Below are positions 9,912-62,224 of a stretch of 64,000 nt of DNA, piece by piece. The translations under genes were made by a program, and so were the position numbers. Position 1 is the first letter of the stretch. The number at the start of each line of letters is the position of its first letter. Below the pieces are notes generated by a model. That model was not told where the DNA came from. It was given only the letters and a program-made list of their open reading frames with translations, and made no database searches. This DNA comes from Candidatus Gottesmanbacteria bacterium (GTDB lineage: Bacteria; Patescibacteriota; Microgenomatia; UBA10105; UBA927): NCBI GenBank assembly GCA_963711735.1, contig CAVQFA010000003.1, positions 284,367 through 348,366 on the forward strand. Direction: 5' to 3'.

Positions 9912-10664
9912 ATGATGAAACAGCGCGATGATAATAAAATTATTCTTGTCACAGGTGCAGTGTTGGTCATTCTTGTGATTCTTGTTGTAGTTATAGTATC
10001 GCGAATCGGTAACAGATACGGATCGAATATCGCATCTGTTTCCAATCAGCCGCCCCCTGCGCAAAGCTCCCATACGGAGAAAGAAACGATTACGAGACTG
10101 CGCATTCAAAGGCCGGGAGAAAAAGGGTGTATGGAAGTCTCACCGGACGGTTCGGTACGCCAATATGCCGTATGTCAGGAAGAACTTGTGAGCGCCAGGC
10201 GTTTAAATGATGCCAAATACATCATACGTCTTATGAAACTTGTTTCTGAGGCAAAATACGCCGAGTATGACGGGACATCATACTGCAGTACGTATTTAAT
10301 TCACGTTGAAACAGAAAGCGGAACGAGGACATTTTGTGTGGACAGTGTAAACGGTGGGTCCGGCGGAGGAGGTACCGGGCCGGGACCGGGTGCTGATATC
10401 ATCAGAACAATTGAAGACATCATTGAGGAAATACCTCAGAATACTCCGACCCCAGGTCCGGGAGTCAGCACGTATCCAACGCCGACAATTTTTGGACAAC
10501 CGACAGATACTCCTACACCAACCGGTGAGGTATATATTACCCCGACTCCGGTACCAACCGGAACAAACAAAGGATTCACGTGTGATTTTGATGAAAATGG
10601 TGCCAGGAAGCCCTTTGCTGTTTCCGGTGTGGTTTGTAGTACGGATCCGATACCGATACCTTGA
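9912..10664 (+). CDS. membrane-anchored Pro/Thr/Gly-rich secreted protein, hypothetical
   Basis: Start placed at MMKQRD because the longer ORF overlaps the terminator. Has a TM anchor, a Cys-containing domain, GGSGGGGTGPGPG and a PT-rich tail. Confidence 0.4.
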   Translation: MMKQRDDNKIILVTGAVLVILVILVVVIVSRIGNRYGSNIASVSNQPPPAQSSHTEKETITRLRIQRPGEKGCMEVSPDGSVRQYAVCQEELVSARRLNDAKYIIRLMKLVSEAKYAEYDGTSYCSTYLIHVETESGTRTFCVDSVNGGSGGGGTGPGPGADIIRTIEDIIEEIPQNTPTPGPGVSTYPTPTIFGQPTDTPTPTGEVYITPTPVPTGTNKGFTCDFDENGARKPFAVSGVVCSTDPIPIP

Positions 10665-44070: not shown

Positions 44071-44098
44071 TTGACAATTCCGGAATACATCATATAAT
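44071..44098 (+). promoter_or_regulatory. sigma70-like promoter for rpoBC (TTGACA-16nt-TATAAT)
   Basis: Consensus hexamers at 44071-44076 and 44093-44098. Confidence 0.45.
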
Positions 44099-44122
44099 AA
44101 TTACTAATTTGATAGCCTTTAT

Positions 44123-44153
44123 GAGGCGAACGTTCATTGTTCGCTTCTTTTTT
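44123..44153 (+). promoter_or_regulatory. terminator-like hairpin + T6 in the rpoB leader (putative attenuator)
   Basis: GAGGCGAAC / GTTCGCTTC 9-bp stem (one G-U), 7-nt loop, then TTTTTT, lying 35 nt before the rpoB ATG. Confidence 0.35.
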
Positions 44154-44187
44154 CGTTTATATCGTCCATTCTGCAGAATTTATTTTA

Positions 44188-47100
44188 ATGGCAAAAGCTG
44201 ATCCACAACCAACCAGAGATTATTGGGGAGCGAATTATTCAAATATTCCTCAATTGGATTTAACTCTTGTACAACGAGAGTCTTATCAATGGTTTTTGGA
44301 AGAAGGGATAAGAGAACTTCTTTCCGAAGTTACCCCCATAACTGATTTTACGGGTAAGAATTGGGAATTGGTATTCGGAGATTATTTTTTTGGAAAGCCA
44401 AGACTCACACCAATAATTGCCCGTGAAAAAGGTTTGACGTATGACATGCCACTTCGCGTTACGGCAACACTGACAAATAAGCAAAACGGCCATCATGTAA
44501 CACAGGAAGTATTCTTGGGAGATATTCCTGCGATGACAGAACATGGTACGTTTATTATTAACGGCATTGAACGTTGTGTGGTTAATCAGCTCGTGCGTTC
44601 TCCGGGGATTTATTTTACGGGTACCGTAGATTCCACAACCGGAAGGACATTGTACAGCGCTGAAATCCGTCCGATGCACGGAAGTTGGCTTGAATTTATT
44701 ACGACAAGAAACGACGTCATAATGGTAAGAATTGACAGACGCAGAAAATTTGTTGCATCCACATTTCTTCGGGCTATTGGTCTCGGAACAAATGAAGAAA
44801 TTCAAAAAGCATTTCAGGACATTGAAGTAAATGGTGACCATAATTTTATCGAATCAACATTGTCAAAAGATACGACAACAAATCAGACAGAGGCTATTTT
44901 GGAGCTGTACCGGAAACTTCGGCCCGGCGAACCAATAGTGCTGGAAAATGCTCAGGAACTCATGCGAAGCATGTTTTTTGATTACCGGAGATATTCTCTT
45001 GAACGGGTAGGCAGATATAAAATGAATAAGAAATTGGAAATTGCTGTATCGAATCAAAAGAATAATTGGGTTTTGACAAAAGAAGATATTTTAGGAAGTG
45101 TAAGATATTTAATCAATTTAGCTAATGGTAAAGGTGACGTTGATGATATTGATCATCTCGGAAACCGCAGGGTTCGCAGGGTAGGTGAACTGGTTGCTAC
45201 AAACGCATTCAGGGTTGGTTTATTGCGTCTCGAGCGGTCGGTCAGAGAAAAAATGAGTTTAGCTGGTCCTGCAGCCATAGATTTAACTCCAACGCAGCTT
45301 ATCAACGCGCGTCCGATTATTGCTGCAATAAATGATTTCTTCCGTACAAGCCAATTATCTACAATACTCGATCAAACCAATCCATTATCAGAAGTTGATA
45401 ATCTCAGACGTCTCACTGTTATGGGCGTCGGTGGAATTTCCCGGGAGCGGGCCTCGTTTTCCATCCGTGATATCAATGCATCTCAATATTCACGGATTTG
45501 TCCGGTCAGAAGTCCTGAAGGACCGAATATCGGGCTTGTAACATACATGTCCCTCTTTACCAGGGTAAATGAATTCGGTTTTCTGGAAGCTCCTTACCGA
45601 AAAGTAGAAAAAGTGAAATCAGGCGAAACCGTAAGGATGAGAATTACCGATGAAGTGGTATATATGGATGCCAGTGATGAGCAATATCACCATATAACAC
45701 ACGCATCAATATCTATAGATCCTAAAGGATATATTCTGGATGAACGGGTTCCTACCAGGTATAAGGGAGAATTTTTGGAAACAGACGTGACAAATATAGA
45801 ATTTATAGATTCTGTTCCAAAGCAGGTAGTGGGGGGTCCGGCATCGTTAATTCCGTTTATTGCGCATGACGAAGCAAACCGTGCGCTTATGGGAACACAC
45901 ATGCAATGTCAGTCCGTGCCATTATTAATTCCTCAATCGCCGGTTATCGGGACCGGGATGGAAAGTCCGATTGCATCTGCAATGGACAGAGTTATCCGGG
46001 CGAAAGACGATGCAACAGTAACGTTTGCTGACGGTTCTATGGTTGTTGTGGAGACGAAGGATAAACAGAAAGAGACGTATCTGATAGAAAAATTTAAAAG
46101 ATCAGCACAATCCACAAGCTACAATCAAAAGGTGCTTGTGAAAACAGGAGAAAAGGTAAGTGCAAATACAGTACTCGTGGACGGACCGGCATGTGACGGG
46201 GGCGAACTGGCGCTCGGATCAAATTTGGTTATTGCATATATGAGTTTTGACGGACTTGGATACGAGGACGCAATTGTTATATCAGACCGGTTAGTGAGAG
46301 AGGATGTCCTGACAAGCATTAATATAGAAGAACACGAAGCAAGCGTAGTGGATACAAAACTCGGACCTGAAGAAACTACCAGAGATATTCCGAATGTGGG
46401 TGAGGAAGCATTAAGAAATCTGGACGCGGACGGTATAGTCGTTGTTGGTGCTGAAGTCGGTCCCAACGATATTCTTGTTGGTAAGATTGCACCAAAAGGC
46501 GAAACTGAACTTACAGCAGAAGAAAGATTGCTACGGGCAATTTTCGGAGAAAAAGCCCGTGAAGTGCGGGACACAAGCCTTCGCATGCCGCATGGAGAAA
46601 GAGGAACAGTCATTGAAGTGAAAATACTGGATAAAGAAAAGGGTGATGAATTGGAGCCAGGTACCAACAGAAAAATAATCGTACGCGTTGCACAAATCAG
46701 AAAAGTAGTAGTCGGGGATAAACTTGCTGGACGACACGGAAATAAAGGTGTTATTTCAAAGATCGTGCCACAGGCAGATATGCCGTATATGTCTGACGGC
46801 ACAGTTGTAGATATAATAATTTCTCCTCTTTCCGTATTGTCCCGTATGAATTTAGGTCAACTACTTGAGGCACACCTGGGTTTTGCGGCATCAAAGCTGA
46901 ATAAAAAAATCGCATTACCGGTTTTTGAACATATTTCGGAGGAGAAAATTACAGACATGCTTAAAAAGGCAAGCCTTTCTCTTGACGGTAAAAGTGAGTT
47001 GTATGACGGACGAACCGGAGAGTTGTTTAAAGAGCGGGTTGTGGTAGGAATTGAATATGTCATGAAACTGATTCACATGGTAGAAGATAAAACGCATGCG

Positions 47101-47624: not shown

Positions 47625-50600
47625 ATGGATAAAAAAGCCACATTTGCAAATATAGTTGATTTTACAGGGTTAAAAATTAAACTAGCTTCGCCGGAAGAGA
47701 TAAAGGCGTGGTCATACGGAGAAGTAACTAAACCGGAAACGATAAATTATCGTACACTAAAACCGGAAAAAGACGGTTTATTCGACGAACGTATTTTTGG
47801 ACCGACAAAAGACTGGGAATGTTATTGCGGAAAATATAAACGGATTCGGTACAGAGGTATTATCTGTGATAAGTGCGGTGTTGAAGTGACTCAAAGTAAA
47901 GTACGTCGTGAAAGAATGGGACACATATCGCTGGCGGCTCCTGTTGTACATGTCTGGTTCTTTAAAGGTGCACCTTCCAAATTATCTCTTCTTCTTGATA
48001 TTAGTCCACGGGCATTGGAAGGAGTAATTTATTTTGCACAGTATCTAGTAGTGAAAGTAGATGAGGAAAAGAAAAAAGAAATTCTCGAAAAAATTATTGA
48101 ATCAGGAAACATCCGTATAAAAGAAGTTGAAAACCGATATAAAGAAAATATTGACCAAAAAAAGGATCAGTTTGCCAAAGAAAAATCAAATATTAAGGAT
48201 AAAGTAAAAGGTTCAGAAGCGAGAGACTTGGCAGCATCAGAGCTTACGTTAAAAGAAAAGCAGGAAATAAATGCATCGGATGCACAGCTTGAACAGGAAA
48301 AACAGAAAGTGAAAGAAGTTGTTGATTCCCTTATTTCTATTGTGAAGGGAATACACCAGTTTGCAACAATTACAGAGGATGAATACCTTCGCCTTTTTGA
48401 ATATGATGCAACATCATGCTTTACCGTAGCCATGGGTGCTGAAGCAGTATCAGAAGTAATTAAAAAACTTGATTTAGATAAAATAGCTGCGGACTTACGG
48501 GAAGAGATTCGGACAAGTTCAGGACAACGACATATTAAGGCAACGAAGAGGCTGCGTGTTGTTGACGGAATCCGAAAAGCTGCGGTGAATCCGTCATGGA
48601 TGATTATTAACACCTTGCCGGTTATTCCTCCTGATTTACGGCCGATGGTACAGTTAACCGGCGGACGTTTTGCCACAAGTGATTTAAATGATTTATACCG
48701 CCGTGTTATCAATAGAAATAACCGTCTTCGCCACCTGATGGATTTAGGTGCTCCTGAGATAATTCTCAGAAATGAAAAACGCATGCTTCAGGAAGCGGTC
48801 GACAGTCTTATTGATGCTACACAACGTCCGTCATCACGTGCGGTTATTCAGCCCTTGCGTTCTCTTTCTGATATGCTTCGGGGCAAACAGGGACGTTTCA
48901 GACAGAATTTACTCGGTAAAAGAGTAGATTATTCAGGCAGGTCAGTTATTGTCGTCGGTCCTGATTTAGCATTGACGCAATGCGGTATTCCGAAAGAAAT
49001 GGCTCTTGAGATGTTTAAACCGTTTGTATTAAGAGAACTTATCGTACGCGGAATAGCTCCGAATGTTAAAAACGCTAAAAATGTTCTTGAAAAAAGAACA
49101 CCTGAAGTTTTTGATATTTTGGAAGAAATAACGAAAAATCATCCGGTGCTTCTCAACCGCGCGCCCACACTTCATAAACTTGGAATTCAGGCATTTTACC
49201 CAATTCTTATAGAAGGTTCTGCTATACGCATTCATCCGTGTGTGTGCGCAGGATATAATGCGGATTTTGACGGAGATCAGATGGCTGTCCACATCCCGTT
49301 ATCAAAAGAATCGCAGGAAGAGGCCCGGACTCTCATGCTTCCGACTCATAATTTATTAAAACCGGCAGACGGATCTCCGATTACAGTTCCAAATAAAGAA
49401 ATGGTTTTAGGTTGTTATTATATTACGACAATCAATTCTTCATATAATATCAAGGATGTTGATGCGCTTCCAAAATATGGGAGCGTTCAGGACGCAATAT
49501 ACGATTGGCAAAGCGGAGGCATCGACATCCGGCAACCTATACGTGTTAACAGAGAAAATGAATATTTAACTACATCTTTAGGACGTATCCTTTTTAATGA
49601 ACGTTTGCCTCAGGCACTTCAGTTTATCAATGAACCTGTAAAAGCATCAATGATTAAAACAATAATCACAAAAGCTCTTTCTCTTTTTTCAAAGGAAGAA
49701 GTGGTGAAACTTATCGATGCAATAAAAAATATCGGTTTTTGGGGAGCAACAATATCCGGAGGTTTATCTGTTTCGGTATTTGATAATCATATAATTAAAG
49801 AAAAATCAAACATCATTAAAGAAACCGAAGAGAGAGTAAAAGTTGTAGAAAATAACTATTTTCAGGGGCTTATAACTCTCGAAGAAAAGAAACGGTTATC
49901 AAATGAAATATGGATTGAGATCACTGAAAAAATTGCCAATATGACCTGGGAGAATTTGAAAGAAACGAACCCGGTGAAAATGATTATTGAATCAGGAGGA
50001 GCACGCGCATCAAAAGATCAATTGAAACAGTTATGTGCAGTCAAGGGACTTGTAGTTGATCCATTGGGCAAAATTGTGGAACTTCCGACTAAATCGAATT
50101 ATCGTGAAGGACTGTCGATTTTTGAATACGTTACCAGTACCCGTGGTTCACGCAAAGGTTTGACGGATTCAGCATTAAAAACTGCAGATGCTGGATATTT
50201 AACCAGAAGACTTGTTGATGTGGCACATGACATGATTATCCGAATGGAAGATTGTGGCACTGAAGAAGGGTTTGAAATTCATCGTCAGGAAGACCGTCAA
50301 ACACCTTTTATAAACCGAATTATCGGACGGATTGCGGCTACCAATATTGTTGTTCCCGGAGGAAAGAAAGTTATTGTCCAGAAGGGTGAATACATAACTG
50401 AGGAACACGCAAAACTGATTGATGAACATGAAGTGAAATCCGTAAGCGTACGCTCACCGATTACATGCGGAGCAATGGTTGGTATGTGTGCACAATGTTA
50501 CGGACGTGATTTTTCTACAACACAACCTGTAGAGATTGGCGTTCCTGTTGGCGTTGTAGCAGCCCAGTCTATCGGTGAACCGGGAACTCAACTCACCATG

Positions 50601-51353
50601 CGCGTACGTCATGCCGGAGGTATAGTCGGATTGGACGTCACCCAAGGTCTTCCCCGTGTGGAAGAACTTTTTGAAATTCGGACACCCCGGAATATGTCAC
50701 CCATATCGGAAATAGCCGGTAAGGCGGACGTCGAAGAAACCGAGCACGGATACAAAGTCACAATCCGGAACACTTCGATAAAACCTGCAGAAGAGCGGGA
50801 ATACATGATACCACTCACATCAGAGCTGAAAGTAAAAAACGGCGATCTTATTTCTACCGGGGATCAATTAGCAAACGGTAATTTGGATATTAAAGAAGTT
50901 TTACAGGTTCGGGGACTTCGAGGTGCACAAAAATATTTGATCACTGAAATCCAAAGAGTATATGAACTACAGGGTATCATGATTGCGGATAAACATTTTG
51001 AGGTTATAGTTCGCAAGATGAGTGATAAAGTGCGTATCGATAACTCAGGAGACACGACTTTACTTCCCGGCGAGCTGATTGACAGATCCAAATTCCAGGA
51101 AGAAAATGCACGGGTTCTGTCCCAGGGGGGTGAACCGGCAACAGCACAAATTATTATCCTTGGTATTACACGTGCATCGTTATATACGGAGTCGTGGTTG
51201 TCTGCAGCATCATTCCAGGAAACGACGAACGTTCTGACGGATGCCGCTCTTGCCGGCAAGGAAGATAAGTTGCTGGGTCTTAAAGAAAACGTTATAATCG
51301 GACGACTCATTCCCGTATCACCTGAGCGTGCAATTATTGGTATTAAACCATAG
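47625..51353 (+). CDS. rpoC: DNA-directed RNA polymerase subunit beta'
   Basis: Zn finger [20 protein letters not shown] and the catalytic loop NADFDGDQM. Confidence 0.95.
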   Translation: [1242 protein letters not shown]

Positions 51354-51374: not shown

Positions 51375-51812
51375 ATGCCGACAATAAATCAATTAGTCAG
51401 AAAAGGAAGAAAATTTAAATCAAAAAAGATAAAGGCAACAGCGCTTCGAAAGTTTTTTAATGCAAAAGACCGTTTAATGAAGCAAATGCCCTCACCGTTT
51501 AAACGCGGAGTTGTGACTGTCGTCAAAACTATGACGCCAAAAAAACCTAATTCCGCACTCAGAAAAATTGCACGTGTCCGTTTATCAAATAAACAGGAAG
51601 TTACTGCATATATTCCGGGAATCGGTCATGAATTGACAGAACACGCAATAGTATTAGTTCGGGGAGGCAGAGTCCCTGATCTTCCCGGAGTAAAGTATCA
51701 TATCGTCCGGGGTAAGTATGATTCAACCGGAGTGGCAAACAGGAAAAAAGGCAGGAGCCGTTACGGAACAAAGAGAGGAAGTACAGGACCCGTTACCGCT
51801 GCCGCCAGTTAA
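51375..51812 (+). CDS. rpsL: 30S ribosomal protein S12 (extended, 145 aa)
   Basis: [23 protein letters not shown] and [13 protein letters not shown] are present. Confidence 0.95.
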
Positions 51813-51817
51813 TTTAT

Positions 51818-52297
51818 ATGCCGAGAGCAGGAAAAATCATCAAAAAAATTTCAGAACCCGATCCGGTTTACGGTAACCGTCTAGTTACGCGGTTGGTCAA
51901 CCGTATTATGGAACGCGGGAAAAAGACAGTCGCACAAGGGCTGGTATACCGAGCATTTGAAGTAATCAAAGAGAAAGGCATGGAAGATCCTATCAAAGTA
52001 CTGGATAATGCCGTAAATACAGTAGGTCCTAAAATAGAAGTTCGGCCCAGGAGAGTCGGGGGGGCTTCATACCAGGTTCCGATGGAAGTCAGGGGTGATA
52101 GGCGGGTAGCTCTTGCTTTACGGTGGATCGTAAGTTTCGCAAAAAAAAGATCAAATAAGGAGTATAAAACATATGCTGATAAGTTAGCTGCTGAGCTTAT
52201 TGATGCTGCAAACGGCGTCGGCGATGCAATAAAAAAACGGGATACGGTACACCGTATGGCCGAAGCAAACAAAGCATTTGCTCATTTCCGGTGGTAA
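51818..52297 (+). CDS. rpsG: 30S ribosomal protein S7
   Basis: MPRAGKIIKK... 159 aa with S7 core conservation. Confidence 0.95.
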   Translation: MPRAGKIIKKISEPDPVYGNRLVTRLVNRIMERGKKTVAQGLVYRAFEVIKEKGMEDPIKVLDNAVNTVGPKIEVRPRRVGGASYQVPMEVRGDRRVALALRWIVSFAKKRSNKEYKTYADKLAAELIDAANGVGDAIKKRDTVHRMAEANKAFAHFRW

Positions 52298-52424
52298 GAT
52301 TCTGCCATAATTACTGTAAACGTGTGTCAAAACAATTAGAGCTTCCCATTCAGTCAATAAAAAGAACAGCAGTTGTTGTTCTGGATCTGTTCTTATTGGT
52401 CTTGTCAAAATTAGCCAAAATGTA

Positions 52425-53738
52425 TTAACGATACAATTTCCAATCTCCGAAGACTTCATTTTTATAGACAGTTATACCATCGATACGAATCATTTTTCCC
52501 GGAGGTACATTTCGGATGAGACGTACAACAATTTGATTCTCGAGTAACGCTCGGGAAACACCTTTCATGTCCGGGTATAGGGATAGTCCAATGTACGATC
52601 TGTCCGGAATGCCGGATATAAAAGTACGGTATTTTAGTTGTCCGAGACGTATGAGCCGTTGGGATCTTTTCTTTGCGTTATATACTGATAAGGGCGCATA
52701 CTGTTTTTCCATAGACGAAGCTCTTGTATTTTTCCGGTTGCTGTAACGGAAGATATGAAACTTAGAGATAGGGTGAGTTTGCAGAAATGTGAAGGTTTCC
52801 TCAAAATTTTCTTCGGATTCACCCGGAAAACCCACAATAATATCAGTTCCTATAAGCGCATCGGGATTTACGGATGCAATCTGATTTATCCGCTCAGAAA
52901 TATATTTTTTTGTATATCCGCGGTTCATACGCAGTAAAATTTCGTCTGATGCAGATTGGATGGGAATGTGGAAAAAATGAACAAAACGATTATCATCAGA
53001 GTGATTTTTATACCACACAATAAATTCATCCGTGATACTCCACGGATGTAAAGAACCAAGACTCAGCCTGGAAACAGAGGTATTTTCCAATACGGCATCA
53101 AGAAGAATAGGCAATGATTCACCATGACCCCTCCCGATATATTCGGTATTTATTCCGGTAATGATAACTTCCTTTATTTTTGATTTATATGCACGTATGC
53201 ATTCAATAACTTCTTTTGATGATTTTGTTGTGGGTTTTCCACGAAGGTAAGGAACTATACAGTAAGAACAAAATCGTTCACATCCGTCCTGAACTTTCAG
53301 TATGAGTCTGCCGGAATCTATAAATTTATCACCTGCATTTTTTTGTTGTGTCGGTTTTATTTTTCCTGTATCTGAATGCTGTTCTGATGCTGTCGGCGGA
53401 ATGAGAAACGAGCGCAGGAGATACGGTATTTGCTGTTTGTCCGAATTGGAAACTAGAAGATCTGTCTCTCTCATACGGTAACGCTCAGTTTTCCATAATG
53501 TTGCCAGACATCCGGTAACGAGAAGTATGGTGTCAGGAAATTTTCTTCGGATACGACGTATGAACTGACGCGCCTCCCGTTCAGCTTTTCCCGTCACTGC
53601 ACACGTATTTATAATATACACGTCCGGTTTGTCATCCGAATAAATAAACCCAAATGCACGAAGCTTCCTGTCGATTGCTATTTTTTCAGCCTCGTTGACT
53701 CTGCACCCAAACGTAAAACTGGCAAATGAACGTTTCAC
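52425..53738 (-). CDS. radical-SAM methylthiotransferase, MiaB/RimO/MtaB family (possibly RimO, the S12 Asp-methylthiotransferase)
   Basis: MTTase N-domain cysteines (FGCRVN, NTCAV, TGC), radical-SAM CERFCSYCIVP, and a TRAM-like C-terminus. Confidence 0.8.
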   Translation of the reverse strand: MKRSFASFTFGCRVNEAEKIAIDRKLRAFGFIYSDDKPDVYIINTCAVTGKAEREARQFIRRIRRKFPDTILLVTGCLATLWKTERYRMRETDLLVSNSDKQQIPYLLRSFLIPPTASEQHSDTGKIKPTQQKNAGDKFIDSGRLILKVQDGCERFCSYCIVPYLRGKPTTKSSKEVIECIRAYKSKIKEVIITGINTEYIGRGHGESLPILLDAVLENTSVSRLSLGSLHPWSITDEFIVWYKNHSDDNRFVHFFHIPIQSASDEILLRMNRGYTKKYISERINQIASVNPDALIGTDIIVGFPGESEENFEETFTFLQTHPISKFHIFRYSNRKNTRASSMEKQYAPLSVYNAKKRSQRLIRLGQLKYRTFISGIPDRSYIGLSLYPDMKGVSRALLENQIVVRLIRNVPPGKMIRIDGITVYKNEVFGDWKLYR

Positions 53739-53780
53739 AACACGTATTATACGAAAAATGAACTCTCAGCATGTAATGAA

Positions 53781-53804
53781 AACTATGATGAAAGTTTCAT
53801 AGTT
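53781..53804. promoter_or_regulatory. perfect 8-bp inverted repeat AACTATGA-N8-TCATAGTT in the divergent promoter region
   Basis: Lies between the divergently transcribed methylthiotransferase and Cas4-like genes. Confidence 0.3.
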
Positions 53805-53917
53805 ATTTAGGTTCGTTCTCAGTGTGGTATGATTACGGGTATAACGGAGTATATATTTTCATTTTTATAAAGAAATGTTTTCTAAATAATTAATAATTTT
53901 CTTAGTAAATTACATCT

Positions 53918-54739
53918 ATGAAAGATAAATATTCTGCCGTGTGGGTATCTCACTCATCTATTTCCGATTATCTCAAATGTCCGAGAGCATATTACCTCGC
54001 GAATATGTACAGGGATCCGAAAACAAATCATAAAATTACCCTGATGCAACCGCCGCTGGCACTCGGGCAGGCGGTGCACGGCACAATAGAGATCATTTCC
54101 ACATTACCTCTTGAAAATCGGTTTACCGTACCTCTTGAAGAACACTTTAATCAGCTATGGGATACCGTTTCGGGCAAAAGAGGAGGATTTCGTGAAAAAG
54201 ATGAGGAAAAGAAGTTAAAAGCACGGGGACTTGCTATGATAAAAAGATTATCCGAACACCCGGGACCGTTACAGCAAAAAGCAATAAAAATTCGTCAGGA
54301 GCTCCCGTATTATTGGCTGTCAGAAGAAGACAATATCATTTTATGCGGAAAAATCGATTGGCTGGAATATCGGCAGGATTCGGATTCGGTACGTATCATT
54401 GATTTTAAAACCGGAAAATTTGATGAAGATCCGGATTCACTTCAGTTACCTATCTATTATCTCGTTACAAAACACGCTCAGACAAAAAAAATTTCCGGTC
54501 TCGCGTACTGGTATTTGGACAGGGATGATGAACCGATTGATATGGTTCTTCCTGATGAAAATGAGTCAGCAAGATTAATTACGGAAATCGCGAAAAAAAT
54601 TGCCCTTGCACGGAAACTCGGACGGTTTGTATGCCGCGAGGGCGGGTGCAGAACATGCAAACCTTTCGAAGCGATTCTTGCAGGAAAAGGAGAGTATGTA
54701 GGGGTGAATGATTTTAATGCTGATGTATATATTTTATAG
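53918..54739 (+). CDS. Cas4-like / RecB-family PD-(D/E)XK nuclease with 4-Cys Fe-S cluster signature (standalone, no CRISPR)
   Basis: N-terminal Cys (YLKCPRAYY), motif II-III (IDWLEY, IIDFKTGK), QxxxY (QLPIYYLV) and C-terminal CREGGCRTC. Confidence 0.65.
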   Translation: MKDKYSAVWVSHSSISDYLKCPRAYYLANMYRDPKTNHKITLMQPPLALGQAVHGTIEIISTLPLENRFTVPLEEHFNQLWDTVSGKRGGFREKDEEKKLKARGLAMIKRLSEHPGPLQQKAIKIRQELPYYWLSEEDNIILCGKIDWLEYRQDSDSVRIIDFKTGKFDEDPDSLQLPIYYLVTKHAQTKKISGLAYWYLDRDDEPIDMVLPDENESARLITEIAKKIALARKLGRFVCREGGCRTCKPFEAILAGKGEYVGVNDFNADVYIL

Positions 54740-54756
54740 ATACAATAGGGATTTTT

Positions 54757-55917
54757 ATGAATACAATTACGTGCAACAAATGCGGTAATATTATTGAAGT
54801 TACGGATGCTCTGGAAGAACAGGCTCGGATTTCCATAGAAAAAAAATTACGTGAAGAATCAAAAAAAGAAATAGAGCATATCCAAAAGGATGCTGAGGAA
54901 AACGCAGGGAAAAGGTTAAAGGAGCATTTTGAATTTGAAACGAAACAGCGGCAAAGTGAAATGGAAGAGATGCGTAAGTATTCGAAAAATCTTCAGGAAC
55001 AACTCCTAACGCTTACCAAAAAACTTCAGGAAGAAAAAAGCAAATCACAGGATTTGGAAATAAAGATGCGCAAAGAGCTTTTAGAAGCTCAGGATAAAAT
55101 ATTTACCCAGGCAAAAACCAAAGCAGACGAAGAGCATAAACTGACTATTTCTGAGCTCACCAAACAGATTCAGGATTTTAAAAAAGCGAATGAGGAACTG
55201 AATAAAAAATTGGATCAGCGCTCTCAACAGCTTCAGGGGGAAGTACAGGAACTTGATTTGGAATCAACGCTTCGGTCTTCGTTTCCGTTTGACGGAATCG
55301 AACCGATTGGTAAAGGCGTAAAAGGTGCAGATGTACGCCAGATAGTGCGGACACAGATAGGAAATGTTTGCGGAGTAATACTGTGGGAATCCAAACAGAC
55401 GAAAACCTGGTCAAACGAATGGTTGGGGAAACTCAAAAATGACCTGCGGGCTGAGAAAGCCAATATTCCCATTATTATATCGACGCAACTTCCGGAGGAA
55501 GCACAATCAGGTTTTGGGATGAAAGATGGTGTAGTAATAGTAGGCCCTGCATTTATTATTCCGATTGCAGAAATGATCCGGCAGCGTCTTATAGATATTG
55601 CCAGGGAGCGTTATGTACTCGCAAACAGAGGCGGAAAAGCAGAGGATCTGTATACCTATATAACCAGTCACGAATTTCGACAGCAAATAGAAGTACTCAA
55701 AGAAACGTTTGATGATATGCAGCATCAGATTATACGTGAAAGAGTTGCATATGAGAAAAGTTGGAAAACCAGAGAAGCGCAAATCACAAAATTATTTTCA
55801 AGTACTGCGCGAATGCTCGGTAGCATGCGGGGAATAATCGGACAATCATTACCGAGCGTTAAAGGATTTGAACTTGAGGGAGAACACAATGAAAACGGAA
55901 CTATGGAAGATGTTTAA
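54757..55917 (+). CDS. DUF2130-like protein: N-terminal zinc-ribbon, ~150-aa coiled coil, C-terminal PD-(D/E)XK-like domain
   Basis: ITCNKCGNI at the N-terminus. A heptad-rich, E/K/Q-rich segment follows (aa 25-170). C-terminal GADVRQIV...VILWESKQT supplies a D...ExK. Confidence 0.5.
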   Translation: MNTITCNKCGNIIEVTDALEEQARISIEKKLREESKKEIEHIQKDAEENAGKRLKEHFEFETKQRQSEMEEMRKYSKNLQEQLLTLTKKLQEEKSKSQDLEIKMRKELLEAQDKIFTQAKTKADEEHKLTISELTKQIQDFKKANEELNKKLDQRSQQLQGEVQELDLESTLRSSFPFDGIEPIGKGVKGADVRQIVRTQIGNVCGVILWESKQTKTWSNEWLGKLKNDLRAEKANIPIIISTQLPEEAQSGFGMKDGVVIVGPAFIIPIAEMIRQRLIDIARERYVLANRGGKAEDLYTYITSHEFRQQIEVLKETFDDMQHQIIRERVAYEKSWKTREAQITKLFSSTARMLGSMRGIIGQSLPSVKGFELEGEHNENGTMEDV

Positions 55918-55989
55918 CGGGATCAATCATAATTACATATTCAGTTGAAGAAATTGTTCGGATTTTAATACACTTCTTTTTTGTAATGT

Positions 55990-57126
55990 ATGCACGATCG
56001 GTATGCAAAGTACTTGCTATACAGTAGTATATGTGCCTTCGGAGTATTGAGTATTATTCTCGGAGTGTTTTTAGTAAAAAAACAAGATAAAACTCCTTTA
56101 TTTCCGTATTCATACCAGAGTATTCTTCCGCATATCCGTTTTGGATTTTTAAAAATGAAAAATGATCAGTACGTACCGGAAAAACTGTCGCTTATCAGAA
56201 TTTTTCGTGAAGACCACAGATGGATCGCCACACTTTCTGCAGACCGTATTCGTACTGTCATTGTCACAGGTGATGTTATACCGGCCCGATCCGTTAATTT
56301 TCTGTCTGTCAGTCGGAATGATTTTTTATGGCCATTTGCAAAAACGTATACCACACTTGGGAATGCAGATATTACATTTATAAATTTGGAAACACCTCTT
56401 TTTCAAAAGTGTCCGCTGACAAATGAAGGAATGATTTTTTGCGGCAGTGACAAACACGTTCAGGGCCTAATTGCTGCAGGTGTAGACGTTGCAAGTCTTG
56501 CAAATAACCATATCGGTAATTACGGAACAGATGGAATCAATGAAACGGTAAAGACTCTCATGGGAGGAAATATTACCAGTGTCGGACTTGGAAATCTCTA
56601 TGTGCGTGATATTCGGGGAGTACGATTCGGTTTTTTGGGTTTTAATGATATCGGTGTCCCTGCTTTACCGATTGCCGTGGCGGACCCTGTCACTATAGTT
56701 CGTCAGATTCGTGATGCAAAAAACCAATCAGATATTATTATCGTTGCGTTTCACTGGGGAGAAGAATATACGCGCATGCCTACCGTTCGGCAACGAGAGC
56801 TTGCACACGCTGCTATTAATGCGGGAGCAGACGTTGTTATTGGTAATCATCCGCACTGGATTCAACCACCTGAGCTATATCAGGATAAGTTCATTATGTA
56901 TGCGCACGGTAATTTTATTTTTGATCAGATGTGGTCGTATGAAACGAGAGTGGGATTGATCGGGACATATTCATTTTTTGATACATCACTCATTGACGTG
57001 TCATTTGATCCCGTATTGATTGAAAATTACGGCCAGCCCGGAATATTGAAAGGTATGGAAAGACAGAAAATTTTACGTATAATAGAAGACGCGAGTGTTG
57101 ATAATGGCATAAGTAAGGTACAATGA
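55990..57126 (+). CDS. CapA/PgsA-family metallophosphoesterase (poly-gamma-glutamate capsule synthesis-like), membrane anchored
   Basis: NLETPL, ANNH, FHWGEEY and GNHPHW motifs. Confidence 0.7.
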   Translation: MHDRYAKYLLYSSICAFGVLSIILGVFLVKKQDKTPLFPYSYQSILPHIRFGFLKMKNDQYVPEKLSLIRIFREDHRWIATLSADRIRTVIVTGDVIPARSVNFLSVSRNDFLWPFAKTYTTLGNADITFINLETPLFQKCPLTNEGMIFCGSDKHVQGLIAAGVDVASLANNHIGNYGTDGINETVKTLMGGNITSVGLGNLYVRDIRGVRFGFLGFNDIGVPALPIAVADPVTIVRQIRDAKNQSDIIIVAFHWGEEYTRMPTVRQRELAHAAINAGADVVIGNHPHWIQPPELYQDKFIMYAHGNFIFDQMWSYETRVGLIGTYSFFDTSLIDVSFDPVLIENYGQPGILKGMERQKILRIIEDASVDNGISKVQ

Positions 57127-57755
57127 TAGAAAGACATATGAATTCTGATCAGACATTGGCAAAAGCCCAGATTGGATATTATCAGGAACTTATTTTCCTA
57201 TCTCCGAAGGCGGAAGCGGCAACCGGACAAATTACTAAATCAGCTGTAACTGATACAGCACCGGTTCCGGTACTTGCTCCGTATATGATGTATCTTCCGT
57301 TTGTTGTATTTTTCCTTCTCTTTATCGGTGTGTTTGCCATGCAGATTGTGAATAAAGTGAAAAGCGCAAGACAAATTATGATGGCATTTCTCTTTGCACT
57401 TGTTACAGCCGGAACTCCGTTTATTGTAACAATGCTGAATATGGGTATTGTGTTTCAGGCCAAAGCCGGTCCTGACGAGATACCGCGGAATATTCGTATC
57501 ATCTCCCAGTCGCCCGAATCGTTGCGCGTCATCTGGAGTACGGATGCTAAAAAAATCGGATCAGTGAAAGTGAAGGATATGTCGCATACACCATATACTG
57601 AACGTATTATTATCGGAAACTTCGGCGAACAAGTACAGGATCATCTGGTTAATATAGACGGTGTTCCGCGTGGAGCATCGTATGAAATGGAAATTTTTTC
57701 CGGAACCACGTGGTATGATAACCAGGGCAAACCTATCCAAATACAGTTAAAGTAG
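57123..57755 (+). CDS. membrane protein with C-terminal FN3/Ig-like domain, hypothetical
   Basis: Two TM segments followed by LRVIWSTDAKKIG...YEMEIFSG. The ATG overlaps the capA stop. Confidence 0.35.
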   Translation: MIERHMNSDQTLAKAQIGYYQELIFLSPKAEAATGQITKSAVTDTAPVPVLAPYMMYLPFVVFFLLFIGVFAMQIVNKVKSARQIMMAFLFALVTAGTPFIVTMLNMGIVFQAKAGPDEIPRNIRIISQSPESLRVIWSTDAKKIGSVKVKDMSHTPYTERIIIGNFGEQVQDHLVNIDGVPRGASYEMEIFSGTTWYDNQGKPIQIQLK

Positions 57756-57784
57756 TGAAGCATTTCTTCCGTCACAAACAAGTC

Positions 57785-58096
57785 ATGAATGTACAGGACC
57801 GTATATACCGTGTTGTGAAACAGATTCCAAAGGGTTATGTGCTCAGATATAAAGACGTAGCAACCTTATCCGGTTGCCCAAGCCCACGAACTGTTGGCAG
57901 TATTCTTCATCGAAATCCTTCTCCGGGTACCATTCCATGTCATAGGGTGGTGCATGCAAGCGGAGAGTGTGCCGTAGGGTACGCGTTTGGCGGAAAAAGC
58001 GGACAGGAGGCGAAATTACGAACAGAGGGAGTTTCTTTCCGTCACGGAAAAGTGATTATGGGTGAATCCTTATGGAAGAGTGTTGTGTATGAATAA
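57785..58096 (+). CDS. MGMT-like alkyltransferase domain protein (O6-alkylguanine-DNA alkyltransferase C-terminal domain only)
   Basis: YKDVATLSG...HRNPSPGTIPCHRVV contains the active-site PCHRV. It may instead start at the GTG at 57755. Confidence 0.65.
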   Translation: MNVQDRIYRVVKQIPKGYVLRYKDVATLSGCPSPRTVGSILHRNPSPGTIPCHRVVHASGECAVGYAFGGKSGQEAKLRTEGVSFRHGKVIMGESLWKSVVYE

Positions 58097-58165
58097 TTCG
58101 TACGTTTTATTACTGGACACCCGCAGGTAAATTTTATACAATTGGATAAAGAGTTATGAAGCATT

Positions 58166-58194
58166 AGCTGCTTCGGAAACGGAGCAGTTTTTTG
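58166..58194 (+). terminator. rho-independent terminator ending the inserted operon
   Basis: CTGCTTC-GGAAAC-GGAGCAG stem-loop followed by TTTTTT. Confidence 0.55.
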
Positions 58195-58265
58195 TTGTTG
58201 CATAAAATTGTGCATGATTGATCGGGATTACTTTGAAATCATTTCGCAATGTATGCAAAGAAACT

Positions 58266-60371
58266 ATGGCATCACAACAAACACAAATTACGCTGAACCG
58301 CGATGTTCCTCTTGAAAAAGTCAGAAACATCGGTATTATCGCGCATATCGATGCCGGGAAAACCACAACAACGGAACGGATTCTCTATTATACCGGTCGT
58401 TCATACAAGATCGGAGATATTGATGAAGGAACAACGGTCATGGACTGGATGGATCAGGAGAGGGAACGGGGCATCACGATAGTGTCCGCAGCGACTACAA
58501 CATTCTGGAAAGGATTTCGTTTCAATATCATAGATACTCCCGGACATGTAGATTTTACTGCAGAAGTGGAGCGGTCTTTGCGGGTCCTTGACGGCGGCAT
58601 TACGGTACTGGATGCTGAGGAGGGTGTGCAATCCCAATCAGAAACAGTCTGGCACCAGGCGGATAAATATAAAGTTCCGCGAATATGTTTCATCAATAAA
58701 ATGGATAAAATCGGAGCGGATTTCCGGGCTACTATCCATTCCATAGAAGAACGGCTTGGGGCACGGACTGCCGTCATGGTTGTTCCGATAGGGGCGGAAC
58801 ATGAATTTAAAGGAGTTATTGATCTTCTGTCCAAAAAAGCATATATCTGGGGGAGTGATGAACTGGGTGCCAAATTTGACGTTACGGACGATATTCCGGA
58901 AAAACTAAAAGCTGAAGTAGAAAAATCACGACATGATCTCATAGAAAGGATATCCGAAACGGATGATGTTCTGATAGAAAAGTACCTCAACGGGCAGGAG
59001 CCCACAGTTGATGAGCTTAAAAAAGCACTTCGCGCAGCCGTTATTGCATATAAATTAGTTCCGATATATGCAGGATCAAGCCTTCGGAATAAAGGGGTTC
59101 AGCCGGTACTCGATGCGGTTATTGATTATCTTCCGTCTCCTTTGGATTTACCTCCTGTTGAAGGTATTCATCCCAAAACAAAGGAAAAGTTACAGAGAAA
59201 ACGTATTGTTACGGATGCGTTTTCAGGCCTGGCTTTCAAAATTCAAATTGATCCGCATGTCGGGAAACTTACATATGTCCGCATATATTCAGGTAAACTG
59301 GAATCCGGTTCGTATGTGTACAATTCTACTAAGGATAAACAGGAACGCATCGGAAGACTTCTTCTCATGCATGCCAATCAGCGTGAAGAAATCAAAGAAG
59401 CGTATGCAGGAGAAATTGTTGCAGTTGTTGGTTTCAAAGATACAACTACGGGCGATACCATCTGTGATAATGATCATCCGATTGTTCTTGAGCAAATATC
59501 ATTTCCTGATCCTGTTATTTCCCTTGCTATTGAACCGAAAACGAAAAATGATCAGGAGAAAATGGGATTTGCCCTTCAGCGTCTGGCGGAAGAAGATCCG
59601 ACGTTCAAAATTCGCTCAAATCAGGAGACAAATCAAACAATCATTTGGGGAATGGGAGAGCTTCATTTGGACATTATTGTTGACCGGATGCAACGTGAGT
59701 TTAAAGTAGAAGCCAACGTCGGTGCTCCCCAGGTTGCGTACAAAGAAACAATAAAAACTCCCGCTGAAGGTGAAGGTAAATATATACGTCAGACCGGTGG
59801 CCGTGGGCAATACGGTCATTGTTTGATAAAAATTGAACCTAAAGGCAGAGGTGAAGGATTTGAATTTATTGATGCGATCAAAGGCGGCGCAATTCCGAAC
59901 GAATATAAAGCTCCCATCGAAAAAGGCATAAAAGAAGCTATGGAAAACGGTGTTCTTGCCGGATACCCGATCGTAGATATGGAAGTGACTCTTTACGACG
60001 GTACGTATCATGAGGTGGATAGCTCAGAGATTGCATTTAAAATCGCCGGAAGCATGGCACTGCAGGATGCAGTAAAAAAAGCGTCACCGATACTTCTGGA
60101 ACCGATTATGAAAGTAGAGGTTACGACACCTGATGAATATATGGGTGATGTGATCGGAGATCTCGGCGCGAAACGTTCTCAGATCATGGGAACACAAAAA
60201 CGCGGGACTGTTACCATCATTTTAGCGATGGTTCCGCTCGCTGAACTGTCCGGATATGCCACAACGCTGCGGAGCATGTCCAAAGGAAGAGCAACATACT
60301 ATATGGAACCGTCACATTATGAAGAAGTACCGAAAAATATTGCAGAAAAGATCATTGCACAAAAAGTATAA
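58266..60371 (+). CDS. fusA: elongation factor G
   Basis: [15 protein letters not shown] and DTPGHVDF are present. The ATG at 58266 ([11 protein letters not shown]...) is preferred. Confidence 0.95.
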
Positions 60372-60512
60372 GCTATGTTAGAATGCTGTCACAGCAGCTG
60401 AGAAATTCAGTTGTGTTTTTCAGTTGGCAGTAAGGTATAAGTCAGATGGATTTTGTTTTCCGATTTTCGTAAAAGTTGATAAAATCGTGAAGACACTTCC
60501 AGAAAGGAATAT

Positions 60513-61700
60513 ATGGCGGAACAGCAAAAGTTTAAAAGAACTAAAACCCATTTAAACATTGGGACAATTGGTCATGTGGATCACGGAAAAACGACATTAA
60601 CTTCAGCAATAACTCACGTTCTTGCAAAAGCAGGATTGGCAAAAGCTTTGAAATACGAAGAAATTGACAATGCTCCTGAGGAAAAAGCCCGCGGTGTGAC
60701 GATAAACATTCATCACTCTGAATACGAAACAGCGAAACGTCATTATGCGCACATCGATGCACCAGGACACGCTGATTATATCAAAAACATGATTACAGGA
60801 GCTGCCCAGATGGACGGCGCCATTTTGGTGGTATCAGCACCGGACGGTCCGATGCCGCAAACAAGAGAGCACATTCTTCTTGCGAAACAAGTGAACGTAC
60901 CGGCAATAGTCGTATTTATGAATAAATGCGATATGGTGCAGGACAAAGAGCTTCTTGATCTTGTTGAAATGGAAGTTCGTGAACTGTTAACCAAATATAA
61001 ATTTCCGGGCGATAAAGTTCCCGTTATCAGGGGGAGCGCACTGAAAGCACTTCAGGGTGATCCGGAAGCAGAAAAAATGATACAGAAACTGATGGATACG
61101 ATCGACACATACGTACCGGATCCGGTGCGTGAACTCGAGAAACCGTTCCTCATGCCTGTAGAAGACGTGTTTTCTATCAAAGGCCGGGGAACAGTTGTAA
61201 CCGGTAGGGTTGAGAGGGGAAAAGTGAAAGTAAATGAGACAGTTGAACTTGTTGGTATACGGGCGACGCAATCAACGGTGGTTACGGGTGTCGAAATGTT
61301 CCGGAAGCTTCTAGACGAAGGTATGGCTGGTGATAATATAGGCCTCTTGCTCCGTGGGATTGAAAAAAATCAGGTAGAGCGGGGACAGGTTGTAGCAGCA
61401 CCGGGGTCAGTGAAGCCTCATACGGAATTTGAAGCAGAGATATACATTTTAGCAAAGGAGGAAGGTGGACGACATACGCCGTTTTTCAGTGGGTATCGTC
61501 CGCAATTCTATATCCGAACAACTGATGTAACCGGAGAAGTAACACTTCCGGCTGGTGTAGAAATGGTTATGCCGGGAGACAGTACAAAAATGACTGCTAA
61601 GTTGATTGTGCCGGTTGCCCTTGAAGAAGGAGTACGGTTTGCTATCCGTGAGGGTGGTCATACAGTCGGAGCAGGAGTAATTACAAAAATTATTGCGTAA
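60513..61700 (+). CDS. tuf: elongation factor Tu
   Basis: [18 protein letters not shown] and NKCD are present. 395 aa. Confidence 0.97.
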
Positions 61701-62064: not shown

Positions 62065-62192
62065 CTATACGATAAGGGGATCTATACTTGTCGTTTAAGA
62101 GATACTTTGGTATACTACACGGTTACAAAGGTATGGAGAAAAAGACTTCATATTTGTAAAACGGTATACCAAAAGTCTCGATTGAGATTCTC

Positions 62193-62219
62193 ACGACCTC
62201 AAATCGAGGTCGTTTTTTT
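62193..62219 (+). terminator. strong intrinsic terminator hairpin + T7 between rpsJ and rplC (with alternative antiterminator pairing)
   Basis: ACGACCTC-AAATC-GAGGTCGT 8-bp stem followed by TTTTTTT. CTCGAT at 62178-62183 can alternatively pair with ATCGAG at 62203-62208. Confidence 0.55.
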
Positions 62220-62224
62220 GTTCT

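Follow-up and report, generated by a model that had tools for sequence, protein, structure and literature searches.

The str operon of Escherichia coli, Bacillus subtilis and most other bacteria consists of rpsL, rpsG, fusA and tuf, which are contiguous, co-transcribed from upstream of rpsL and embedded in the rpoBC-str-S10-spc supercluster. We analysed a stretch of 64,000 nt (the window, to which all positions refer) from contig CAVQFA010000003.1 of Candidatus Gottesmanbacteria (Patescibacteria, Microgenomates; assembly GCA_963711735.1), in which the same four genes keep their order and orientation but are not contiguous and do not appear to be co-transcribed from upstream of rpsL. The rpsG stop codon ends at 52297 and the ATG of fusA lies at 58266, leaving a gap of 5968 bp that includes one convergent gene. 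On the upstream side, rpsL (S12; 51375-51812, plus strand; product 81-89% identical to S12 of relatives) follows rpoC (47625-51353, plus strand) after a spacer of 21 nt without a promoter and is a member of an rpoB-rpoC-rpsL-rpsG unit, of which rpsG (S7; 51818-52297, plus strand) is the end gene. On the downstream side, fusA (EF-G; 58266-60371, plus strand) is followed by tuf (EF-Tu; 60513-61700, plus strand) and then by rpsJ and the S10 cluster. Compared with the canonical operon, rpsL-rpsG is thus joined to the rpoBC unit, and fusA and tuf each have a predicted promoter of their own. The gap holds a minus-strand gene for a MtaB-like methylthiotransferase, convergent with rpsG, and a plus-strand block encoding a PD-(D/E)XK nuclease, a DUF2130 protein, a PGA_cap/CapA-family protein, a 210-aa FN3-like protein and a single-domain MGMT. 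A first-pass annotation of this DNA had described the str operon as physically split at these two positions around a convergent methylthiotransferase gene and five co-directional genes, and the open reading frame (ORF) map, together with Pfam and NCBIfam searches, confirms that description.

The rpsG-fusA gap across Gottesmanbacteria

The split is not peculiar to the window. In 12 of the 12 Gottesmanbacteria lineages examined, 2.6 to >10.9 kb lie between rpsG and fusA, so that a comparison of synteny in relatives, suggested by the first-pass annotation as a check for insertion, finds the two genes contiguous in none. The gap measures 2.6 kb in locus L112, 5.3 kb in L083, 6.1 kb in L111 (assembly RBG_16_52_11), 6.2 kb in L084/L085, 7.2-7.4 kb in the L113-L122 group, 7.6 kb in L086 and 8.6 kb in JGI 3300075153; it exceeds 10 kb in L081, L082 and L110 and 10.9 kb in L088. 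These relatives are well diverged from the window, with RpoC 76-79% and S7 62-72% identical, and the nearest other EF-G sequences, named Gottesmanbacteria or Patescibacteria, are 82-88% identical to that of the window where measured. As a control we used the 71 loci of other phyla that carry both rpsG and fusA among the S7 matches listed (50-58% identity); in these the distance from rpsG to fusA is 26 bp at the median and 706 bp at most, and in 69 of them it is below 300 bp. The split in the window is far outside chance or typical variation. Two side observations concern the sampled genomes. The two loci L083 and L112 are str regions of a single assembly, GCA_040960095.1; they lie on separate contigs (1.07 Mb and 348 kb) and differ in EF-G sequence as well as in cargo, so that this assembly probably mixes two organisms in one bin. 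In two Deltaproteobacteria/Desulfobacteraceae metagenome-assembled genomes (MAGs; L044, 4188-5981, and L066, 10001-11709), tuf directly follows rpsG and fusA is missing from the operon, which is a different kind of str-operon deviation.

The content of the gap was compared by clustering the gap proteins of ten loci with those of the window; for JGI 3300075153 it was taken from the Pfam listing. None of the six window genes is unique to this gap: all have a counterpart in the gap of one or more other Gottesmanbacteria genomes. The DUF2130 protein has gap orthologues in L081, L082, L083, L088, L111 and JGI 3300075153; the PD-(D/E)XK nuclease in L081, L082 and L111, as well as upstream of rpoB in L114 (59-64% identity), and also in the JGI 3300075153 gap; the PGA_cap protein in L081, L082 and L111 (49-52%); and the MGMT in L084/L085 (57%). 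The FN3-like membrane protein has homologues of 33-38% identity in the gaps of L082, L110 and L111, and a minus-strand UPF0004 and Radical_SAM gene in the gap of JGI 3300075153 is the counterpart of the MtaB-like gene. In other genomes a second set recurs, comprising an HhH-GPD glycosylase, GSDH, CvpA/CAP and DsbD/thioredoxin; since L088 (HhH-GPD, DUF2130, DsbD, Trx) and L083 mix both sets, the two are linked to one ancestral pool. To these are added lineage-specific extras: YfhO, QueH, GH18 and QueA in L081; GNATs, HAD and a DEAD helicase in L082; Fur-ZnuABC in JGI 3300075153; APH, LysE and isochorismatase in L110; and MerR and HTH genes in L086. As the content differs between genomes and the split is present in all, the rpsG-fusA junction appears to be a long-lived variable region, and by the same comparison the six genes of the window appear to be the clade's own. 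The gap would then hold ordinary chromosomal genes of a clade-wide pool (DNA repair, tRNA modification, envelope and redox functions), which would have been differentially lost, shuffled and supplemented by lineage, and from which all six window genes would derive. Among metagenome contigs found with DUF2130, the str region was present in L088 alone; neither S7 nor EF-G appeared in the stretches retrieved around the other DUF2130 genes.

Two further observations concern the positions of cargo genes in relatives. In the L113-L122 group (GW2011 / RIFCSPLOWO2_01_FULL_48_11), a PD-(D/E)XK orthologue (59% identity) lies directly upstream of rpoB (~1990-2826), where it still adjoins the rpoB-rpsG unit, on the other side from that in the window. 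In several relatives the first gap gene, encoding the HhH-GPD glycosylase, overlaps or abuts the rpsG stop (L112, 7423-8040; L113-L122, ~10915), and because of this position part of the cargo in L112 and L113-L122 is probably co-transcribed with rpoBC-rpsLG.

Two other accounts of the gap have to be weighed. As the source is a MAG, and as MAGs can be mixed, which the two different str regions of GCA_040960095.1 illustrate, the rpsG and fusA contigs might have been chimerically joined by assembly or binning. However, the independent Logan assembly ERR12037368 carries identical S7 and DUF2130 proteins on one contig whose gene order and gene lengths match the window from rpoC to the 210-aa gene; the split is therefore not an assembly artefact, and with the same architecture in many independent NCBI, ENA, JGI and Logan assemblies this account is effectively refuted. 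The first-pass annotation had instead taken the block for acquired accessory or defence DNA, that is, for a ~6 kb island that this genome, or a very recent ancestor of it, gained horizontally by insertion into a hitherto intact str operon. The gap does resemble a genomic or defence island in being a multi-gene block that interrupts a conserved core context and varies in content between genomes, with accessory-looking genes in L110, L086 and JGI 3300075153; a Cas4-like nuclease is present, and the tetranucleotide distance of the gap is slightly above average (rank 5 of 59 sliding windows). Unlike such islands, however, the block carries no mark of patchy presence, foreign composition, mobility or defence. 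An island should be absent at the same site in relatives, whereas this site is occupied in all 12 lineages, each of the six genes has a homologue in the corresponding gap of another genome, and the fusA promoter and leader beyond them are conserved across the clade. The gap has a GC content of 0.402 (window, 0.427), and the GC, GC3 and synonymous-codon fit of the six genes fall within the spread of the 46 other window genes, save the fit of the MGMT gene, which is noisy at 113 codons; the compositional comparison with the flanks that the first-pass annotation had proposed thus gives values in the host range. Pfam and NCBIfam searches found no integrase, transposase or recombinase gene in the gap, no direct repeats pair its two borders, and the window has no tRNA and no CRISPR or tandem repeat array. 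With PADLOC, the nuclease gave weak Cas4-superfamily matches (best E=5.5e-9, 34 bits) and the other five proteins nothing meaningful, and neither PADLOC nor PHROGs searches recognised a defence system in the gap. Recent acquisition is therefore unsupported and, in our judgement, very unlikely; relatives sharing the arrangement with typical composition, which the annotation itself had named as the sign of an ancestral, lineage-specific state, are in substance what we observe.

The methylthiotransferase of the MiaB/MtaB radical-SAM family (52425-53738, minus strand) scores 316 bits against the MtaB model TIGR01579, below its cut-off, and passes the subfamily model TIGR00089. Between it and rpsG a hairpin at 52363-52382, with its T-run on the minus strand, reads as the terminator of the MtaB-like gene and would be a weak terminator at best for rpsG; it is absent from the computed plus-strand terminator list for the window. 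The RecB/Cas4-like nuclease (53918-54739, plus strand; PF12705, E=1e-23) has one N-terminal Cys, a C-terminal C-x4-C-x2-C cluster and the motifs GKID, IDFK and QLPIYY. Models of Cas4 itself match it weakly and below their cut-offs (NCBIfam cas4, 34 bits against 65). The DUF2130 protein (54757-55917, plus strand; E=3e-56) has an N-terminal Cys-x2-Cys and a Lys/Glu-rich middle stretch; sequence searches of the PDB returned no solved relative for this protein or for the nuclease. The PGA_cap/CapA-family protein (55990-57126, plus strand; E=1e-55) begins with a hydrophobic segment. The 210-aa protein (57123-57755, plus strand) does contain two hydrophobic segments, as expected of the FN3 membrane protein it had been called, and its C-terminal part is FN3-like, but it has no Pfam match of its own, the fn3 match being a weak one in its L111 homologue. 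The MGMT (57755-58096, plus strand; 113 aa) carries the Pfam domain DNA_binding_1 alone, the N-terminal domain being absent, and its motif IPCHRVV (PCHRV) aligns to the active site of human AGT; the catalytic Cys would place it among O6-alkylguanine-DNA alkyltransferases as opposed to alkyltransferase-like (ATL) proteins.

The five plus-strand genes are tightly packed, with spacers of 17 and 72 nt and two overlaps. The divergent spacer before them (53739-53917; 25.7% GC, the most AT-rich long spacer in the window) is presumed to drive the MtaB-like gene in one direction and the five-gene block in the other. Of the AT-rich divergent promoter region with an 8-bp palindrome described earlier, the AT-richness and the inverted repeat (8-bp arms AACTATGA/TCATAGTT, 53781-53804) are real, but the spacer holds no consensus promoter and is not conserved with L111, comparison with which also revealed no conserved promoter upstream of the PD-(D/E)XK gene. 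The repeat is likewise not conserved in L111 and is probably unimportant. A 16-nt near-repeat, TTT(T/C)G(T/C)AATGTATGCA, occurs at the PGA_cap start (55979-55994) and 9 nt before the fusA ATG (58242-58257), which may be due to chance.

The fusA promoter and its leader hairpin

Upstream of fusA, 200 bp were aligned and the comparison was then widened to ten lineages. A sigma-70-type promoter, TGGACA-N17-TACAAT, is predicted from sequence conservation at 58114-58142 (plus strand); for the consensus TnGACA-N17-TA(C/A)AAT, the -10 element (TAMAAT) is present in all ten lineages and the full motif in nine, L110 having a weaker -35 element (TTGCGG). Near the inferred transcription start lies a conserved box (58153-58163, plus strand; GTTATGAAGCA in the window, GTTGAARCA in relatives), whose GAAGCA (58158-58163) is complementary to TGCTTC in the 5' arm of the hairpin that follows. 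This hairpin starts 24 nt downstream of the -10 element and, with its T-run, occupies 58166-58199 (plus strand); the stem (58166-58189) has 10 pairs and about -14.5 kcal/mol and is followed by TTTTTTGTTGTT, which are the features of an intrinsic terminator. A hairpin with a T-run is found at the equivalent position in 10/10 lineages, with 8-10 pairs and -10 to -15 kcal/mol; these results rest on single-sequence folds, as the MAFFT/RNAalifold alignment misregistered L083, L084 and L086. The order of predicted promoter, box, hairpin, T-run and ATG is likewise the same in all ten. These elements are conserved and the surrounding spacer is not, while the stem sequence itself differs by subclade (5' arms CUGCUUC, CUGUCUCGC, CUGUUCC, GCUACGC, GCUGCGC and GCUUCCCU).

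In the window and in L082, an extra 70-75 nt lie between the T-run and the fusA ATG (window, 58198-58258; L082, ~9915-9990). The extra stretch of the window folds into a second stem-loop and shares ATTTCG(C/T)AA with L082.

What this hairpin does can be read in more than one way. The first-pass annotation regarded 58166-58194 as a clean intrinsic terminator that closes the gap block and placed the fusA-tuf promoter in 58195-58265. A related account accepts the split as ancestral, makes the hairpin solely the terminator of the upstream genes and has fusA transcribed from a downstream promoter or by read-through, the TnGACA-N17-TACAAT motif not being a working promoter. It is true that fusA has a co-directional upstream neighbour in 10 of 11 arrangements, that no other terminator lies between the MGMT stop and the hairpin, and that the window has 66 nt between T-run and ATG. 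Nevertheless, 58195-58265 contains no promoter-like site scoring >=9/12, and in seven lineages (L081, L083, L084, L086, L110, L112 and L114) the T-run is just 5-25 nt from the fusA ATG, leaving no room for a promoter downstream of the hairpin. The -35/-10 motif is invariant where its flanking sequence is not, and the succession of promoter, hairpin and gene is repeated at rpoB and tuf (see below). Moreover, L082 has kept both promoter and hairpin although its fusA is preceded by a gene on the opposite strand, so the hairpin is more than the terminator of a co-directional gene. We consider this account quite improbable: the hairpin and T-run are real, but they lie inside the fusA leader, and the promoter motif stands upstream of them. 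A different objection is that the hairpin might mainly stabilise the 5' end of the mRNA or provide a context for translation initiation, as a 5'-proximal stem with a U-rich, Shine-Dalgarno-poor tract, and not act as an attenuator. In full-leader folds of the window, L081 and L082 the stem is indeed extended, bases 5' of it (including AGCA of the box) pairing with the tract after the hairpin, and fusA in most relatives, like rplC in the window, has no Shine-Dalgarno sequence, the start codons coming directly after a U-rich tract. Against this stand the full set of canonical intrinsic-terminator features (a GC-rich stem of 8-10 bp and 5-8 U), the presence of the same hairpin and T-run at tuf despite its strong AAGGAGG Shine-Dalgarno sequence further downstream, and the distance of the stem from the inferred 5' end (~9-17 nt), which is greater than in classical 5'-terminal protective stems. 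We regard a mainly stabilising role as rather unlikely.

The hairpin at 58166-58199 is thus best described as a putative conserved leader element with an attenuator-like layout, which could also stop read-through from upstream. As it lies downstream of the predicted fusA promoter, every fusA transcript would have to pass through it, and a canonical terminator in that position would have to be leaky or regulated. In the mechanism that we propose, the hairpin would be a leaky or regulated promoter-proximal terminator (an attenuator) of fusA that also stops read-through from the cargo genes, and the GAAGCA box at the 5' end of the transcript would pair with the 5' stem arm as an antiterminator. 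Seven of the nine leaders tested allow the box to pair with the 5' half of the hairpin (-5.4 to -8.7 kcal/mol), through GAAGCA with UGCUUC in the clade of the window and through CAC(A/G) with UGUG in L083 and L084, where both arm and loop take part. Such pairing is more stable than most shuffles of the upstream segment (individual fractions 0.02-0.08), with a combined p of ~6e-5 over sequences that are related and so not independent. At gathering as well as permissive thresholds, none of the leaders found here has a credible Rfam 15 family. A mini-ORF, ATG-AAG-CAT-TAG (58156-58167), overlaps the GAAGCA box just before the hairpin in the window; a leader-peptide reading of box and mini-ORF was rejected, frames and stops not being conserved in relatives.

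Similar leaders at rpoB, tuf and rplC

The layout seen at fusA recurs at other core genes. The rpoB promoter (TTGACA-N16-TATAAT; 44071-44098, plus strand) matches the consensus at 12/12 positions and is conserved in L114, and on this ground the organism clearly appears to use canonical sigma-70-type promoters. A hairpin with a T-run (44123-44147, plus strand) lies between this promoter and the ATG at 44188, which is the true rpoB start and not the TTG at 44137 of the ORF list. The stretch GAGGCGAACGTTCATTGTTCGCTTCTTTTT of this leader is identical in the window and L114, though RpoC of comparable relatives is 76-79% identical, and the leader, which has no Rfam match, is a candidate conserved attenuator or leader. 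In both genomes (window, 44071-44188; L114, 2835-2965) the promoter is followed by ATAGCCT-N4-GAGGCGAACGTTCATTGTTCGCTTC and then a T-run. At tuf, a predicted promoter with an extended -10 TG (TGCACA-N17-TAGAAT; 60356-60384, plus strand) overlaps the fusA stop and is followed by a hairpin and T-run (60394-60414, plus strand) in the same arrangement as at fusA, with the strong Shine-Dalgarno sequence mentioned above downstream. The motif TRTGNTAMAAT stands directly after the fusA stop in 9/9 loci, followed in most by a hairpin and T-run.

The spacer between rpsJ and rplC is unusually long (76-440 nt; 62080-62224 in the window; L081-L086 and L110-L112) and contains a strongly conserved RNA-like motif. 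Its parts are GAGAUACUUUGGUAUACU, a variable hairpin, CCAAAAGUCUCGGAUGAG, and ACGACCUCAACCGAGGUCG followed by about seven U; a long-range helix pairs GAGAU..UUUGGU with ACCAAA.GUCUC, GGAUGAG is conserved, and the motif ends in a terminator-like hairpin, CGACCUC-N-GAGGUCG, with a U-run abutting the rplC ATG. With compensatory changes at three pairs and no counterpart in Rfam 15, it is a candidate new ribosomal-protein leader before L3. Core expression units of this lineage thus seem generally to carry promoter-proximal terminator hairpins, which is a further argument against the hairpin at 58166 being the end of an island.

Ancestry, known parallels and significance

Taken together, we favour the reading, with a probability of roughly 80%, that the break between rpsG and fusA is ancient and vertically inherited in Gottesmanbacteria, that the cargo comes from the clade's own pool and that fusA is read from a conserved promoter through a leader hairpin. 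Transcription of the region would then run as follows: rpoB-rpoC-rpsL-rpsG from the promoter at 44071-44098; the MtaB-like gene convergently; the block from PD-(D/E)XK to MGMT from the AT-rich spacer; fusA from the clade-conserved promoter at 58114-58142; and tuf from the further extended -10 promoter at 60356-60384. On this comparative evidence, fusA-tuf needs and appears to have its own promoter, and both co-transcription and translational coupling with rpsG would be lost. The earlier suggestion that the regulation of EF-G and EF-Tu has been rewired is borne out in that fusA and tuf have predicted promoters of their own, but the rewiring takes another form, with the promoter upstream of the leader hairpin.

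Several points weigh against this reading. The relatives are all fairly distant, at the RpoC and S7 identities given above, and the same-genus comparison is the identical re-assembly alone; the comparison set consists of Gottesmanbacteria only, and an S12 protein search aimed at outgroups from other Microgenomates or Patescibacteria returned named matches that were all Gottesmanbacteria again. The pairing between box and stem arm is weak or absent in L110, L112 and L114, and covariation in the MAFFT/RNAalifold alignment is modest (3 of 9 pairs), with some sequences in the wrong register. A strong terminator before essential, highly expressed genes would be costly, so that the hairpin may mainly stabilise the 5' end of the mRNA or terminate the upstream gene, and the extra 70-75 nt of the window and L082 might contain a second, minor promoter.

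The gap of 2.6 to >10.9 kb stands against the median of 26 bp found elsewhere. Translation of EF-G is coupled to that of S7 in E. coli (Saito et al. 1994, as cited in PMC2965389); such coupling is physically impossible in the window. Multigene insertions into the supercluster have been described in Gammaproteobacteria, namely tusDCB between rpoBC and str and bfd-bfr between str and S10 (Brandis et al., PMC6735719, PMC8046335). As in those cases, ordinary non-mobile genes would have lodged in the supercluster long ago and then been inherited vertically; unlike them, the break in Gottesmanbacteria lies inside the str operon, and its cargo is far more variable between lineages. Naville & Gautheret (2010, PMC2965389) predicted attenuators before rpsL in many taxa and before fusA in streptococci, and also cite Pelagibacter rpsL/fusA motifs (Meyer et al. 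2009, cited in PMC2965389). The fusA leader of the window resembles the predicted rpsL/fusA attenuators in its terminator hairpin and T-stretch directly before fusA and in its possible antiterminator pairing, but it is very short (~50-60 nt), it follows its own promoter and does not occupy an rpsG-fusA intercistronic spacer, and it matches no Rfam 15 family in sequence or structure. The leader of the E. coli S10 operon, which mediates attenuation by L4 and NusA, also has a promoter-proximal terminator hairpin with a U-run before the first gene. By analogy, the hairpin and U-run of the window lie shortly before the first gene of a long unit of translation genes; in contrast, no similarity between the two leaders is detectable, fusA and not rpsJ comes first, and the window has a separate, more elaborate conserved RNA-like motif before rplC. 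A literature search found no description of an rpsG-fusA split for Gottesmanbacteria or other lineages of the Candidate Phyla Radiation, which is weak evidence of novelty.

As an island the gap is ordinary; its modest interest lies in an operon split shared by the whole lineage and in leader elements that are not on record. A tentative and rather unlikely extension is that EF-G and EF-Tu are permanently uncoupled from rpsL-rpsG, and that rpoB, fusA, tuf and rplC belong to a lineage-specific attenuation regulon, the gap being a tolerated cargo bay insulated by the leader. Such a regulon would sense, for example, a ribosomal protein, an elongation factor or the supply of NTPs, and the gap would persist because the leader terminator insulates fusA from whatever lies upstream. 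For genome scans, the split is a warning that a broken 'universal' operon can be an old lineage trait and not a recent acquisition. If it maps to the base of Gottesmanbacteria, it would be a synteny marker of the group and, if our reading is true, a natural experiment in which the synthesis of EF-G and EF-Tu is uncoupled from that of S12 and S7. To our knowledge, almost nothing is known experimentally about the control of transcription in the Candidate Phyla Radiation; the promoter-plus-hairpin leaders of fusA, rpoB and tuf and the motif before rplC may provide concrete regulatory candidates for this group.

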